Source: an uncultured Chloroflexia bacterium (lineage in GTDB: Bacteria > Chloroflexota > Limnocylindria > Limnocylindrales > CSP1-4). Taken from it: DNA of 64,000 nt. Numbering within the stretch: position 1 is the first letter of the stretch; each line of letters starts with the position of its first letter. The notes under the pieces are model-generated. The model was not told the origin of the DNA, did no database searches, and worked only from the letters and a program-made list of their open reading frames with translations. The translations under genes were made by a program, and so were the position numbers. Below, one piece after another: positions 52,879 to 60,926 of this stretch. The DNA lies in assembly GCA_963752475.1 (NCBI GenBank), contig CAVVYR010000007.1:320001-384000 (forward strand), in the 5' to 3' direction.

Positions 52879-53052
52879 CTAGCGCTTGGCTTCCTTGGCG
52901 CGATTGCGCTGCTGGGCCGCGCGGTCGACGTCCTTGCTGCGCACGCGGGCCACGTCGCTGGCCAGCGTGGGGTTGATCATCATGTGGCCTTCGACGTCAT
53001 CGTCGTCGGCCGGGCGGTTCTGAGGGCTCTCCTTGCCCTTGTTCTCAGTCAT
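52879..53052 (-). CDS. 57-aa peptide with acidic DDDDVEGH leader and basic helical core
   Basis: GGAG RBS, own terminator, upstream TACAGT -10 and palindromic box; divergent from the Crp gene. Confidence 0.8.
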   Translation of the reverse strand: MTENKGKESPQNRPADDDDVEGHMMINPTLASDVARVRSKDVDRAAQQRNRAKEAKR

Positions 53053-53164
53053 GTTTGTCGCTCCATCTCTTGACCGGTTCGGCGACTTGGACGCTGTCGT
53101 CGAAGCGTGACTGTAGCGTGCCCGTCGAGGCCCGGCCACACCCTCGGACTCGCGACACTGCGCT

Positions 53165-53180
53165 TGTCAAATGGCCGACA
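53165..53180. promoter_or_regulatory. Crp/CooA-type binding site, box 1
   Basis: TGTCA-aatggc-CGACA (TGTCG-N6-TGACA on the minus strand) between the divergent peptide and Crp genes. Confidence 0.72.
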
Positions 53181-53240
53181 CCCGGCATCCGACGTCGACT
53201 CGGCTTGACGTGGCGGATGTCGCCCCGCCATGGTTGCGAC

Positions 53241-53932
53241 GTGGACCAGCAGTTGATCATCACCAGCCTGCGTGACTCGTACCTCTTCGAGCGTGCCGAC
53301 GATGACGCTCTCACGGCCATCGCGCGCCACATGCGGCGGCGCCGCTTCCGGCGCAACGAGACCATCATGCATCAGGGTGATCCCGGCGACGCCCTTCACG
53401 TCGTGAGCTCGGGCGCGGTCAAGATCGTGCTGCCCAGCCTCGAGGGTGAGGAGGCCATCATCGCCACCCTGCGCAGCGGTGACTTCTTCGGCGAGCTGGC
53501 GCTGCTCGACGGGGCTCCGCGCTCGGCCACGGCCGTGGCCTTGGAAACGACCGAGACGCTGACGCTCCCGCGTGAGGCCTTCCTCGAGATGCTCGATCGC
53601 GACAAGTCTCTGCGGGAGTCGTTGCTGTCCGGCCTCGCGCGAGAGATCCGGCGCGTCACCGGACACGTGGAGGAGCTCCACTTCCTCGACCTCGCCGGAC
53701 GGCTGGCCAGCCGCCTGGCGCGGCTGGCGCGTGAGGCCGAGCCCGAGGCCAACGAGGTCCGCCTCGACTGGCCCTATACGCAGTCGGACCTGGCCTCGAT
53801 GATCGGCGGTACCCGGCAGTCCGTTAACAAGCTGCTGTCCGACCTCGTCGACTCGCGACCTCGTGATCATCGAGAAGGACACGCTCATCATCCCCGACGT
53901 CGCAGGCACTGGAGCTCGAGGCCGAGCGGTGA
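53241..53932 (+). CDS. Crp/Fnr-family cNMP-binding transcription regulator, frameshifts near 53853 and 53905
   Basis: Phosphate-binding cassette FFGELALLDGAPRSAT; HTH TQSDLASMIGGTRQSVNK. TTGACG/CATGGT leaderless promoter. Repaired end ...IIEKDTLIIPDVAALELEAER* overlaps the next GTG. Confidence 0.92.
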
Positions 53933-54714
53933 CCGAGGCGACCGACGCCGCCCTGCAGGTCCTCCTCCGCGCCGCCCGCGAGACGGCCACCGCGCGGCGC
54001 ATCGGCGGTGACACCGAGACTGCGTTGCTGCAGTCGGTGGTGGATGCGGCCGCGACCATCTTCGATGCCGAAGCGTCGTCGATCGCGCTCTTCGAACCCG
54101 ATCCTGACCGGCTCGTCTTCCGCGTCGCGGGCGGCGAACAGGGCGACGGCGTCGTCGGCATCTCGGTCGCGCCGACGCACGGCATCGTGGGCTACGTCTT
54201 CTCGACCGGCGAGCCCATCGCGCTCACCGACGTCGGCTCGGACCCGCGCTTCGACAAGGGCACGGCAGAGAAGACCGGCTACATGCCGCGCAGCATCGCC
54301 GCCGTGCCGCTCATCGATGCCGGAGCCACGGTCGGCGTGTTGCAGGTGCTCGACAAGCACTCCGAGGAGTCGTTCTCACTGCGCGACATGGACCTGCTGG
54401 GTGTCTTCGCCCGGCAGGCAGCGGCAGCCATCGAAGCCGCGCGCGTGGGCCGTGACTCCGAGCGGCTGCTGCGCAACGCGCTGGTGGCCATCGGTGGTGA
54501 GGCGCTCGACACGGAGGCGCTGGATGCGCTCATGGCCGCTGCGGCCGAGGAGCTCGACCGTGACGACGAGGCACCGTTCTGGCGGCTGGTGGACCAGGTG
54601 GCGCAGCTGCGCGACACCAACGACGTCGATCTCGAGTTGGTGGAAGAGATCCTCGAGGTCGTGTCCCGGCATCGCTCGCACCGCCTCGGTCGCTACGGTC
54701 GCCGGCCCCGGTGA
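53929..54714 (+). CDS. Stand-alone GAF domain protein
   Basis: EASSIALF, GIVGYVFSTGEP, DPRFD, SIAAVPL and VGVLQVLDK...FSLRDMDLL (NKFDE-like GAF); helical C-terminal extension. Confidence 0.9.
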   Translation: MTEATDAALQVLLRAARETATARRIGGDTETALLQSVVDAAATIFDAEASSIALFEPDPDRLVFRVAGGEQGDGVVGISVAPTHGIVGYVFSTGEPIALTDVGSDPRFDKGTAEKTGYMPRSIAAVPLIDAGATVGVLQVLDKHSEESFSLRDMDLLGVFARQAAAAIEAARVGRDSERLLRNALVAIGGEALDTEALDALMAAAAEELDRDDEAPFWRLVDQVAQLRDTNDVDLELVEEILEVVSRHRSHRLGRYGRRPR

Positions 54715-55538
54715 GCGAGGCCTCGACGCTACGGCCGGCCTGGTCTGAGCCGTTCGTCGGCGAGGCCGTGGCCGAGCTGGCGCGAGCAGCGCGCCTCGAC
54801 CGCATCGACCGCGAGTGGGCGTTCGAGGGCGCGACCGGCAAGGGTGTGACGGTGGCCATCATCGACAGCGGCATCGAGGCCGATCACCCGGCGGTCTCGG
54901 GCCGCGTGCGCCGACAGGTGGCGGTCGAGCTGCAGGACGGCGACCCGGTCGTGGTCGATGACGAGTGCGGCGATCTCTTCGGCCACGGCACCGCCTGTGG
55001 CGGGCTCATCACGGACCTCGCGCCCGACGTCGAGCTGGTCTCGGTGCGTGTCCTCGGCTCCGACCTGCGGGGCAGGGGAGCGGCGTTCCTCGGGGGGCTC
55101 GAGTGGGCCATCGAGCATGAGGTGGATGTGGTCAACCTCTCGCTCTCCTCCAAGAGCGAGGTCCTCTTCGCCGACTTCCATGAGGTCGTCGACCGGGCCT
55201 ACTTCGCCGGAGTGACGCTCGTGAGCGCGGCCAACAACGCACCCGGTGCCTCGTACCCCTCGCTCTTCTCGTCGGTCGTCTCGGTCGCGGCTCACGAGGA
55301 GCCCGACCGCTGGCGCTGGTACTACAACCCGCGTCCGCCCGTGGAGTTCGGGGCCTGGGGCGTGAACGTGCCCATCGCCTGGAAGGACGGCGGCTCGTCG
55401 GTGGCCACGGGCAACTCCTTCGCGGCACCGCAGATCGCCGCGCTCGCGGCCCTGCTGCGCTCGAAGCACCCGGGCCTCACCCCCTTCGAGGTCAAGGCCG
55501 TCCTCGCCGCCACAGCAGACCTGTCAGCACCCGATTGA
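54711..55538 (+). CDS. S8 subtilisin-like serine peptidase, cytoplasmic
   Basis: Triad motifs IIDSGI, HGTACG and GNSFAAP; no signal peptide or obvious prodomain. Confidence 0.93.
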   Translation: MSEASTLRPAWSEPFVGEAVAELARAARLDRIDREWAFEGATGKGVTVAIIDSGIEADHPAVSGRVRRQVAVELQDGDPVVVDDECGDLFGHGTACGGLITDLAPDVELVSVRVLGSDLRGRGAAFLGGLEWAIEHEVDVVNLSLSSKSEVLFADFHEVVDRAYFAGVTLVSAANNAPGASYPSLFSSVVSVAAHEEPDRWRWYYNPRPPVEFGAWGVNVPIAWKDGGSSVATGNSFAAPQIAALAALLRSKHPGLTPFEVKAVLAATADLSAPD

Positions 55539-59545: not shown

Positions 59546-60538
59546 ATGGCCTCCAACCTCTACTTCGCCGACTGCCACAACGACCTGCTGCTGGGCGTGA
59601 CCTGCCAGCGCGATCTTGGGAACGACGACCTCTTCGGTGACTTCTGGCTGCCGCAGCTGCGCGCCGGGAACGTGCGTCTGGTGGTGCTGCCGGTCTACAC
59701 CGAGGACTGGTTCACCGGCGAGGCCGCTCTTCGACGAGCGCTGACCACGGTCGAGACTGCTCGCCAGATGGCCCAGCGCCATGGCGAGGAGGTGGCTCTG
59801 GTCGCGACCGCCGGCGAGCTCCGAGCCGCCCTCGACAACGGTCGCATCGCGCTCGTCCTGGCCTTCGAGGGTATGGAACCCGTGGGTGCCGACCTCGACC
59901 TCCTCGACACCTTCTGGCACCTCGGCGTGCGCATGGCCTCGCTGACCTGGAACCGCCGCACGCCCTTCGCCGATGGTCTCGGCGAGCGACGCACCGGTGC
60001 GGGCCTGACCAACCTCGGCGAGAAGGCAGTCGAACGCATGGAGCGCCTGGGCATGATCGTCGATGTCAGCCACCTCTCCGACCCTGGCTTCGACGACGTC
60101 GCGAGGGTGGCGACGCGGCCGTTCGTGGCCAGCCACTCGTCCTGCCGCGACGTCTTCGACCACCCCCGCAACCTGCGTGACGACCAGCTGCGCACCATCG
60201 CCGAGTCCGGTGGCTTCGTGGCCATGAACGCGATGAGCGATTTCGTGGGCGAGGGTTCGACGGTCGACACGTTCCTCGATCACGTCGAACACGCGCTGCG
60301 CCTCATCGGCGCTGAGCATGTGGGCCTGGGCCTCGACTTCCTGGCCGACACGGAAGCGCACTCGCTGCCCGCCTCGGCCCAGCCCGAGCCCGGCTTCTTC
60401 ATCGACGGACTGGAACGACCGGCCGACCTGCCAGCCCTCGGTGCGCGGCTCGAGCAGCGCATCGGTCAGGATGCGGCCCGACAGGTCGCGAGCGGCACGT
60501 TGATCGGATCGCTCGAGCGCCTGCTGCCCGCGGACTGA
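59546..60538 (+). CDS. M19 family (membrane/renal-type) dipeptidase
   Basis: DCHND, FEG, LTWNR, VDVSHLS, ASHS, HPRNL and HVGLGLDF motifs. Confidence 0.92.
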   Translation: MASNLYFADCHNDLLLGVTCQRDLGNDDLFGDFWLPQLRAGNVRLVVLPVYTEDWFTGEAALRRALTTVETARQMAQRHGEEVALVATAGELRAALDNGRIALVLAFEGMEPVGADLDLLDTFWHLGVRMASLTWNRRTPFADGLGERRTGAGLTNLGEKAVERMERLGMIVDVSHLSDPGFDDVARVATRPFVASHSSCRDVFDHPRNLRDDQLRTIAESGGFVAMNAMSDFVGEGSTVDTFLDHVEHALRLIGAEHVGLGLDFLADTEAHSLPASAQPEPGFFIDGLERPADLPALGARLEQRIGQDAARQVASGTLIGSLERLLPAD

Positions 60539-60540
60539 AC

Positions 60541-60583
60541 TGTCGCCTGCTTGACAGACATCGCGCGCAGAGCGTCGTACGGT
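60541..60583 (+). promoter_or_regulatory. Class II Crp-type promoter, box 3 plus -10
   Basis: TGTCG-cctgct-TGACA centred at 60548.5; TACGGT begins 29.5 nt downstream; aligns without gaps to 55548-55612. Confidence 0.8.
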
Positions 60584-60610
60584 GATGTCACGCAGCGCGA
60601 GGTCAACGTC

Positions 60611-60850
60611 ATGAGTGGAATGCTCCAGCACAACGACGAGTACCGCGAGCGCGCCCAGAGCCGTCAGGCAGAAGCTCGTCGGTGGGCCGAGGTCGATCAT
60701 CTCTCCCGGCTCTCCAAGGCGAATCGTCCCAAGCGGCTCACGCGCCCGCACCACTATCACCACCATCACTCGATGCGTACAAGGTTGCGTGCCCTGCGCA
60801 TGCACCTGCACGCGATGCACTCACCGTTCCACCTGCGACCGCATCACTGA
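60611..60850 (+). CDS. Small protein B: MLQH...RRWAE motif plus His-rich basic tail
   Basis: GAGG RBS; paralogous to 55618..55827; dedicated promoter and terminator. Confidence 0.8.
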   Translation: MSGMLQHNDEYRERAQSRQAEARRWAEVDHLSRLSKANRPKRLTRPHHYHHHHSMRTRLRALRMHLHAMHSPFHLRPHH

Positions 60851-60889
60851 GCACTGCGCTCCGGTGCGATGCCCTGGGTCCGATCCGCT

Positions 60890-60926
60890 AGCGGCGGGGT
60901 CCTGACGAACCGGACCCCGCCGTTTC
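60890..60926 (+). terminator. Intrinsic terminator hairpin
   Basis: agcggcggggtcc...ggaccccgccgttt inverted repeat. Confidence 0.75.

Follow-up and report, generated by a model that had tools for sequence, protein, structure and literature searches.

The locus and its conserved core

Within a 64,000-nucleotide window of contig CAVVYR010000007.1 (positions 320,001 to 384,000; contig C7 of the source genome, G000), from an uncultured Chloroflexia bacterium of soil and sediment, genes for a Crp-family regulator, a GAF-domain protein, and an S8-family subtilase lie in a row between purH and metG. They are accompanied by genes for a protein joining a class III cyclase to a STAND ATPase (cyclase-STAND), an M19 dipeptidase, and three small proteins, here called pep1, pep2, and pep3 (Table 1). 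Assignment of the window proteins to Pfam families and their coordinates agree with the gene content listed in an earlier note on this DNA, and the sequence confirms the two GTGA overlaps described there, between Crp and GAF (53929-53932) and between GAF and S8 (54711-54714), together with the positions of three palindromic boxes. That note read the whole set as a self-contained signaling circuit. The conserved core is a different one, consisting of Crp, a Crp box, at least one protein with a DDD[VT]EGH motif (DVEGH proteins), GAF, and S8, and it is present in Candidatus Limnocylindria and some other Chloroflexota. The DDD[VT]EGH-repeat proteins are thus a conserved partner that the earlier note overlooked; it was right that Crp, box, GAF, and S8 co-occur, whereas the M19 dipeptidase, pep2, pep3, and the cyclase-STAND protein do not belong to the conserved set.

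Orthologs of the S8 protease (60 to 72% identity) are present in families f1 (83/137 genomes) and f4 (118/153) and in no genome of f2 (0/16; genomes of ∼1.1 Mb) or f3 (0/92), with six unpublished genomes included in these class tallies. Elsewhere in the phylum, orthologs with 47 to 54% identity occur in 34 of 301 genomes (one of those surveyed being unpublished), for example in 10 of 12 in f18. A set of 20 loci drawn from further genera of f1 and f4 has GAF, S8, and the motif throughout (20/20 each) and Crp in 19. Among 49 loci with at least 3.5 kb of upstream and at least 2.5 kb of downstream sequence, GAF is found in 49, Crp in 46, at least one motif in 44, at least two motifs in 34, and the box in 44. 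Outside the class, GAF adjoins S8 in 12 of 12 loci, and in four of these, in f18, Crp adjoins a DVEGH gene or cluster near S8 and GAF with differing gene orders. Crp, box, DVEGH proteins, GAF, and S8 travel together in two families and with the order shuffled in a third; this retention of the same partners through rearrangement is the best neighborhood argument for a functional unit.

The gene order shared by 15 loci of the genus runs purH, divergent pep1, box, Crp, GAF, S8, box, pep2 where present, and metG. The flanking genes play this role in only part of family f1, with purH in 16 and metG in 19 of the 49 loci. The GAF stop and the S8 start often overlap: by hand count, 18 of 33 loci have the GAF stop sharing an NTGA with a possible S8 start. 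Stop-to-stop frames of 530 to 557 amino acids (aa) suggested GAF-S8 fusions, but the two were never in one frame in the 33 loci and the linker of P0010 looks off-frame, so that such fusions were not counted.

Table 1. Features of the purH-metG interval, in window positions.
Feature	Position	Strand	Remarks
purH	50993-52609		Pfam
pep1, 57 aa	52879..53052	-	One-motif DDD[VT]EGH member; from translation
Box 1, TGTCAAATGGCCGACA	53165-53180 (element 53151..53180)	-	Between divergent pep1 and Crp
Crp-family regulator	53217..53932	+	cNMP_binding (PF00027), 96.5 bits; HTH_Crp_2 (PF13545), 39.3 bits
GAF protein, 261 aa	53929..54714	+	Pfam GAF_2, 73.7 bits; GTG start overlaps Crp stop
S8 subtilase, 275 aa	54711..55538	+	Triad D52, H92, S236; GTG start overlaps GAF stop
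Box 2, TGTCGGCTGTCTGACA	55548..55563	+	Begins 10 nt past S8 stop
pep2, 71 aa	55612..55827	+	Hydrophobic C-terminal helix
Hairpin after pep2	55838..55874	+	GC-rich; 13-bp stem; -27.6 kcal/mol; z -1.93
Double zinc ribbon/class III cyclase/AAA_16 (STAND)/TPR protein, 1201 aa	55920..59525	+	Pfam
M19 dipeptidase	59546..60538	+	Pfam, 276.8 bits; not conserved at this locus
Box 3, TGTCGCCTGCTTGACA	60541..60556	+	Ends 21 nt before TACGGT; geometry as Box 2
pep3, 79 aa	60611..60850	+	pep2 paralog over N-terminal 46 aa; His-rich tail
Hairpin after pep3	60890..60924	+	GC-rich; 13-bp stem; -32.9 kcal/mol; z -4.63; upstream of metG
metG	starts 60975		Pfam

DDD[VT]EGH proteins, the Crp box, and the regulator

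In most of the wider loci, the gap between crp and gaf holds a gene directly behind the box that encodes 2 to 11 DDD[VT]EGH repeats. The spacers between repeats are short, mostly basic, and of low complexity (e.g., KAKSRVNTKAKSRAKSRA), and comparison of 267 distinct motif contexts shows no constancy beyond D-[VT]-E-G-H and the acidic residues ahead of it. The member at the window locus is pep1, with a single motif copy (DDDDVEGH) and a C-terminal module, NP-x3-A-x-[DE][LM]AR-x-R-x2-[DE][IV][ED]R...KEA[KR], that is conserved in a subfamily of pep1 and 25 aligned orthologs, some with up to 8 repeats ahead of it. A six-frame search of its own genome gives 7 loose motif matches, pep1 being the sole DDVEGH. 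The DDD[VT]EGH family has no model in Pfam or NCBIfam: pep1 matches neither, and three DVEGH repeat proteins tested gave nothing significant in Pfam. Six matches were returned by a homolog search with a DVEGH repeat protein, all without a name or Pfam domain, the Atlas cluster of pep1 comprises 76 "hypothetical" members from Chloroflexota, and no published description of the motif was found in the searchable literature.

At the level of whole genomes, at least three matches to a degenerate DNA pattern for the motif are present in 78 of 153 genomes in f4, ∼42 of 137 in f1, 2 of 92 in f3, and 0 of 16 in f2 (hand count), and a reversed-pattern control was near zero in almost all genomes. We note that DVEGH repeat genes (as in L057, L061, and L067) are often frameshifted or partly masked by X runs in the relatives' assemblies, as expected for tandem repeats, and repeat numbers taken from metagenome-assembled genomes (MAGs) are unreliable for this reason.

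The box, TGTC-N8-GACA, occurs exactly three times in the window (53165, 55548, and 60541), compared with ∼0.98 expected, and at least three are reached in 7 of 100 window shuffles. There are 24 in the 4.25-Mb genome, four of them within 14 kb of the locus; the fourth, at C7:387208, lies just outside the window, 42 nt ahead of the start (387250) of a second cyclase-STAND paralog. Among 122 distinct DVEGH clusters, 71 have a box 143 to 412 nt upstream of the first motif, mostly at 160 to 200 nt, and an upstream box is present in 52 of the 74 multi-motif clusters. Read toward the gene, the site is TGTCG-N6-YGACA, then 7 nt, then a third (T)GTCG, a layout common to the relatives and to pep1, where Box 1 reads TGTCGGCCATTTGACA and is followed 7 nt on by the half-site TGTCGCG (53151-53157). 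The third half-site stands on the DVEGH-gene side in most relatives and is absent from the pep2 and pep3 promoters, and it suggests a second bound dimer or a composite site. At pep2, 21 nt separate the end of Box 2 from a TACCTT hexamer, as read from the sequence; if TACCTT and TACGGT are -10 elements, the box centers of pep2 and pep3 would lie near -41.5, the classical position of a class II activator. A strict consensus scan of 52600-61100 returned no promoters and no terminators, so these promoter positions are readings of spacing only.

The type of box co-varies with the recognition helix of Crp. Of 103 distinct Crp orthologs, 98 have an R-Q helix, with a TGTC box within 1.5 kb in 78 and the TGTGA type in none; the other five have an R-E helix, with TGTGA-N6-TCATA between crp and the DVEGH gene in four and a TGTC box in none. 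This co-variation ties Crp both to the box and to the DVEGH genes. The regulator of the window has TRQSVNK (R-Q-S) where Mycobacterium tuberculosis Crp has SRETVNK (R-E-T), its box has C where CRP sites have G, and its predicted regulon is the local protease module. Glu181 of Escherichia coli CRP reads that base pair and CooA has Gln there; CooA-1 matches the regulator only at E 0.02. The shift between R-Q and R-E would be the change expected if this helix residue reads that base pair. In PMC545781, the CooA consensus TGTCGGCNNGCCGACA is a CRP/FNR site, a 16-bp palindrome with a 6-bp center, and the module box agrees with it in the outer bases. Pairing of Crp with the box is thus indicated indirectly, by the clustering of boxes at the locus, their position upstream of DVEGH genes, and their co-variation with the helix. 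The earlier proposal that Crp acts on the small peptide genes gains from this co-variation and from the boxes in front of them.

The closest solved structures to the regulator are those of M. tuberculosis Crp (E 1.4e-35 over the full length, with the intact L018 ortholog as query; entries 3H3U, 3MZH, 3D0S, and 3I54), which likewise combine a cNMP_binding domain with a Crp-type helix-turn-helix (HTH). The cyclic nucleotide (cNMP) pocket residues G-E...R-S/T-A are present, with FFGELALLDGAPRSATAVA of the window aligned to FGELSIFDPGPRTSSA of M. tuberculosis Crp, reading FFGEL...PRSA, in agreement with the FGE...PRSA residues named in the earlier note. In 29 of 49 loci, for example at L057 9121-9471, L059 12598-12906, and L067 12532-12852, the module has as its neighbor a shorter additional protein whose one domain is of the cNMP-binding type (∼30% identity to the N-terminal half of Crp); the window module has no such neighbor.

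As assembled, the end of the Crp HTH runs into a second frame and then a third. The source genome is a MAG (4.25 Mb, completeness 88.8%, contamination 5.8%), and in alignment with five orthologs the window Crp has two one-base insertions unique to it. Short-read contigs from X1, a public run that holds 72% of sampled words and may be the source sample, have one letter fewer at 52836, 53851, 53901, and 62166, the last being the place where metG changes frame. The frame breaks in Crp and metG are assembly errors, and the X1 contigs and the five orthologs without the insertions argue that crp is no pseudogene; the Crp of the organism is most likely intact. Its start is suggested by orthologs to be GTG 53241, and its true end is ...ALELEAER with TGA at 53930-53932, past insertions near 53851 and 53901. 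Single-base insertions occur in this stretch at ∼1 per 2 to 3 kb, and with insertions at four places, further open reading frames (ORFs) of the window may be split likewise. We note also that G+C content is ∼70% between 52.6 and 61 kb and that spurious ORFs are numerous there.

The GAF protein, the S8 protease, and adjoining genes

The GAF protein comprises a GAF domain and a conserved helical tail of ∼80 aa. In its alignment D142, K143, F149, and D153 are invariant, giving a [D]K...F...D.E pattern at the place of NKFDE, the signature of cyclic-nucleotide-binding GAF domains. Its profile matches, after 4MCW, the GAF domains of PDE5, PDE2, PDE10, and the adenylate cyclase 1YKD (E 1e-13 to 1e-19). 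In these proteins GAF is fused to a phosphodiesterase or a cyclase, whereas here it stands alone as a protein, and its gene is coupled to the protease gene.

In the S8 protease the catalytic residues are retained and an export signal is lacking. Alignment of 30 sequences shows D52, H92, N175, and N176 to be invariant and S236 to be kept in at least 90%, and alignment to subtilisin BPN' places the triad in subtilisin order with the oxyanion Asn. An AlphaFold2 model (predicted local distance difference test [pLDDT] 87, predicted template modeling score [pTM] 0.86; residues 1 to 30 only pLDDT 46 to 58) finds subtilisin BPN' variants as its best Foldseek matches (E 1.7e-17, TM 0.65 to 0.69). Only ∼18 residues precede the stretch that aligns with mature subtilisin, from which we conclude that the protein has neither a signal peptide nor a propeptide. 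The intracellular subtilisin proteases (ISPs) of Bacillus and relatives are likewise cytoplasmic, without a signal peptide or I9 propeptide and with a short conserved N-terminal extension, and the major intracellular serine protease 7XR8 is among the S8 profile matches (E 3.4e-26). ISPs carry an inhibitory LIPY/F pro-peptide (PMC6220982), whereas the alignment consensus of the S8 protein has LPAWSEPF in its place, as a conserved N-terminal segment, and a GAF partner; by this feature it falls outside the ISP subgroup. By analogy, LPAWSEPF may work like the ISP pro-peptide.

The S8 clade also occurs in longer proteins, and among the 120 listed of 224 scored the commonest fusion is to a C-terminal kinase-like domain. 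In P0046 the protease is fused to a cNMP and HTH module with the same TRQSVN helix, and in P0113 (1,315 aa, on a 4.9-kb contig) a zinc ribbon, cyclase, AAA, and TPR region is followed by S8 at the C-terminal, sensor-side end; each is one cluster on one contig, and a gene-calling artifact is possible. A kinase-fused sister clade (P0081, P0090, and P0066) has ∼50% identity, ∼600 aa, the same N-terminal PAWS motif, and several Acidimicrobiales names. A metagenome scan, mostly of GAF-type loci, included three kinase-type loci of at least 4 kb, none with a DVEGH motif, although this is a very small sample.

Complex prediction with S8, GAF, and pep1, each supplied as an alignment and run as three chains, gives an S8-pep1 score of 0.39 (runs 0.22, 0.39, and 0.39), compared with 0.01 for the best control. 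The runs agree in at least 64% of contacts with a partner pLDDT of at least 43, and replacement of S8 by an unrelated protein lowers the pep1 score to 0.01. In calibration, 58 of 80 solved complexes came up to the mark, as did 2 of 110 mismatched pairs, but only 7 of the 80 did so with a score of no more than 0.60; since the present run used its own alignments and three chains, these counts apply only roughly. The prediction lends weak support to binding of pep1 by S8. A link between the protease and a small peptide, which had been proposed earlier along with structure prediction of the peptides and their partners, thus finds some backing in the pep1-family neighborhood and in this weak score, with pep1 as the peptide concerned.

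The cyclase-STAND protein (PF00211, 86.1 bits; PF13191, 71.7 bits; PF13424, 49.6 bits; AAA_16 followed by TPR) aligns with 2W01 and 6FHT at FADLVGFT, EKFAGDA, and AVNTASR. Class III cyclases have a metal-binding Asp pair, an Asn-Arg pair, and a Lys that specifies ATP as substrate. Here Lys stands in the EKF motif, as the earlier note had it, at the position of Glu in the guanylate cyclase 2W01 and of Lys in 6FHT, named an adenylate cyclase, in agreement with that note's argument for ATP. The genome encodes five full-length cyclase-STAND paralogs, the second with 56% identity. A cyclase-STAND gene is near S8 in 5 of 15 genus loci, in 10 of 49 loci (within 6 kb), and in 13 of 46 metagenome loci; with about five paralogs per genome, chance would give a few percent by a rough estimate, so that cyclases are enriched there without being a regular part. 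Of 32 cyclase N termini, 3 have a box ahead of them, two of these in this genus; in the L015 ortholog of the second paralog the box is 41 nt upstream. Mycobacterial Rv0386-type proteins likewise join a class III cyclase, a STAND ATPase, and TPRs, and the TIGR03903 TOMM kinase/cyclase fusion model matches the cyclase-ATPase part at 226.7 bits, below its cutoff of 705.75; the protein of the window differs from both in having an N-terminal double zinc ribbon and no kinase or HTH domain.

An M19 dipeptidase gene is present in 1 of 15 genus loci, at a different position, and in 0 of 20 wider loci. The block of first cyclase, M19, Box 3, and pep3, given the variable presence of these genes in the genus loci, is a local insertion in which a box-pep cassette is duplicated. 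The ties of the cyclase-STAND protein to the module are loose, and it is locally inserted outside the conserved core; M19 and the duplicated pep2 and pep3 cassettes are genus- or genome-level additions between S8 and metG. With a cyclase within 6 kb in so few of the 49 loci, a box before so few cyclases, and M19 so rare in the related loci, the self-contained circuit is not supported as proposed.

The earlier note treated the three small genes as related and each preceded by the same box. The boxes are indeed in front of all three, but the genes are not one family: pep2 and pep3 are paralogs with 39% identity over the first 46 aa (E 7e-6), whereas pep1 belongs to another family, is unrelated to either, and has no paralog. 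Neither pep2 nor pep3 has a DDD[VT]EGH motif. At the DNA level, a repeat of 91 nt with 74% identity spans the box, leader, and N terminus of the two genes. The start of pep2 is more likely ATG 55618, as orthologs begin MNGMLQH, and the gene is found in 5 of the 15 fetched genus loci and L077, only in loci of the genus or close to it. For pep3 no hydrophobic helix is seen in any frame and no separate ortholog was found elsewhere in the related loci examined. The hairpins after pep2 and pep3 begin with the same 15 bases and have AGCGGCGGGGUCCUG in common; that after pep2 appears terminator-like with a poor U tract, and for that after pep3 none of 200 shuffles folds as well.

RNA-library contigs (X4 and X7) match GAF, S8, pep2, pep3, and the cyclase with 0 to 2 mismatches, including 55655-55877 over pep2 (X7, 0 mismatches) and 60643-60853 over pep3 (X4, 1 mismatch). 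DNA carry-over is possible, and since contigs cannot show transcription, they are a weak hint of it only, with no meaning attached to the parts they leave uncovered. Past the window, between metG and the box-preceded second cyclase-STAND gene, locus L028 (G000:C7:384001-392000) carries a gene for an extracytoplasmic function (ECF)-type sigma factor (988-1608), two ORFs without a family, and an opposite-strand gene resembling acyl-acyl carrier protein thioesterases. Identical translated stretches surfaced among tblastn noise matches in G000 at C6 36287, 339434, and 353636 and at C7 141417 and 158444, and these are probably mobile-element copies or a duplicated segment.

A candidate cAMP-controlled protease pathway

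Our preferred reading is that the module encodes a cytoplasmic subtilase that is induced by Crp, gated by GAF, and directed at DVEGH proteins, in an undescribed pathway under cyclic AMP (cAMP) control, and we judge the chances of its being right or wrong to be about evenly balanced. Crp loaded with a cyclic nucleotide, most likely cAMP, would bind TGTCG-N6-YGACA boxes and control the DVEGH genes and, where these sit between crp and gaf, the GAF-S8 operon as well; in this genus it would also control pep2, pep3, and one cyclase-STAND paralog. The GAF protein, probably of the cyclic-nucleotide type, would form a complex with S8 and gate the protease. The disordered DVEGH proteins would be dedicated partners of S8, most likely substrates cut at or beside D-x-E-G-H, and if each motif were cut, a multi-repeat protein would give several short basic peptides. 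The cAMP would come from STAND-type cyclases, often though not always encoded nearby. Besides the neighborhood and box counts, the fusions of the S8 clade in P0046 and P0113 count in favor of this reading.

Several observations weigh against this reading. Neither the motif nor the box is universal: 5 of the 49 loci lack the one and 5 the other, no exact box lies within 450 nt in 51 of the 122 DVEGH clusters, and some S8-positive genomes (e.g., G085, G131, G137, and G154) have no pattern match at all. There is no DVEGH motif at 8 of 12 GAF-S8 loci outside the class or at the three kinase-type loci, which implies that S8 can exist without a DVEGH partner. The genomes are kin, so that counts overstate independence, and the R-E/TGTGA cases come from one or two lineages and so reflect few evolutionary events. 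For the GAF protein, the best solved match, 4MCW, is the GAF domain of a metal-dependent phosphohydrolase and no cAMP sensor, the motif is DK...F...D.E, with Asp for Asn, and not the canonical NKFDE, and the model is poor (pLDDT 62, pTM 0.54). A complex score of 0.39 lies in a band where a pass is wrong in most cases unless the pairing was probable from the outset, and the fold of pep1 is uncertain (pLDDT below 50).

Some of these same points favor an alternative in which the DVEGH proteins are co-regulated with the protease and are no substrates of it, being highly charged, disordered stress or nucleic-acid binders, or inhibitors or adaptors of S8, while GAF-S8 cuts other cytoplasmic targets. 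The basic, low-complexity spacers would suit such proteins, we know of no S8 recognition rule for D-x-E-G-H, GAF-S8 does without DVEGH genes at those out-of-class loci, and support for the complex is weak. This alternative deserves to be taken seriously, but we consider it unlikely, because constancy of the motif amid drifting surroundings is more readily explained by a recognition site than by a bulk physical property; in addition, DVEGH genes stay beside S8, GAF, and Crp through changes in gene order, and the pep1 score needed S8. Less probable again is the closed loop of the earlier note, in which the cyclase-STAND protein makes cAMP, Crp-cAMP induces the peptides, S8 matures one of them, the peptides feed back on the TPR sensor, and M19 clears them. 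In its favor are the enrichment of cyclase-STAND genes near S8 over the rough expectation from five paralogs, the boxes shortly before the second paralog and the L015 ortholog, the place of the first cyclase directly after the box-pep2 cassette, the Lys at its substrate-specifying position, and P0113, which fuses all of its domains to S8. Yet the cyclase is absent within 6 kb in about four of five loci, M19 genes and boxes before cyclase N termini are as rare as described above, pep2 and pep3 are restricted to this genus or near it and lack the motif, and P0113 is a single cluster on a 4.9-kb contig.

That purH and metG merely happen to enclose housekeeping and regulatory genes that have nothing to do with one another, with palindromes arisen by chance, is scarcely credible. 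Window shuffles do reach three boxes now and then, and the purH and metG flanks are confined to part of f1, but 4 of the genome's 24 boxes would hardly fall within 14 kb at random, the box type co-varies with the helix, and the neighborhood counts contradict it with synteny across families and classes. The Crp-induced, GAF-gated protease may also be carried further, to a module in which S8 serves as an intracellular prohormone convertase that cuts polyproteins at each DDD[VT]EGH, the peptides being an output or a feedback signal read by the STAND TPRs, and in which other phyla have rewired the S8 clade to partners of the kinase-like, Crp, and cyclase-STAND kinds. We regard this extension as improbable and offer it as speculation. 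If the cut were just before E-G-H, each peptide would start X-X-His and would be able to bind metal.

Multi-copy precursors cut by S8 proteases are known in the cyanobactin PatE, cut by PatA and PatG, and in yeast alpha-factor, cut by Kex2. The module shares with these a small protein of 2 to 11 repeats beside a subtilase and a short invariant motif, and it differs in that the loci examined showed no modifying enzymes, no transporters, and no signal peptides and in that everything is apparently cytoplasmic. It does not answer to a cyanobactin-like multi-core system of peptides made on the ribosome and modified after translation, with no modifying or export genes among the genes queried and a match to the PatA/PatG model of only E 2.3e-4 and 20 bits against a cutoff of 421. 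The proposed logic, in which a dedicated domain senses a nucleotide and the protease acts on a small specific partner, is also that of CalpL, a Lon-SAVED defense protease switched by the nucleotide messenger cyclic tetra-adenylate (cA4), although the sensor is SAVED/CARF there and GAF here and the protease is of class S8 here. A defense-system reading was considered and dropped on account of PADLOC, which returned no defense-specific match, only generic subtilase (E 3.6e-15), cyclase, and cNMP-binding models (IetS at E 8.8e-5, and PycC and Pycsar effector models on the cyclase and cNMP-binding domains). A further difference is that the module is chromosomal and vertically conserved, with purH and metG beside it.

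By title and abstract, the searchable literature yielded no account of a Crp-GAF-S8 module of this kind. The known routes of cAMP signaling in bacteria are transcription factors, acetyltransferases, and a few other effectors, and a GAF-gated protease with its own repeat-motif partners, if true, would add regulated proteolysis or peptide production to the outputs of cAMP. The parts are small soluble proteins, and the predicted Crp site comes with a natural specificity switch (R-Q with TGTC versus R-E with TGTGA) that is easy to test. In the class Candidatus Limnocylindria, represented here by MAGs only and for which no functional studies were found, the module is widespread, and it would thus provide a handle on the physiology of these bacteria.

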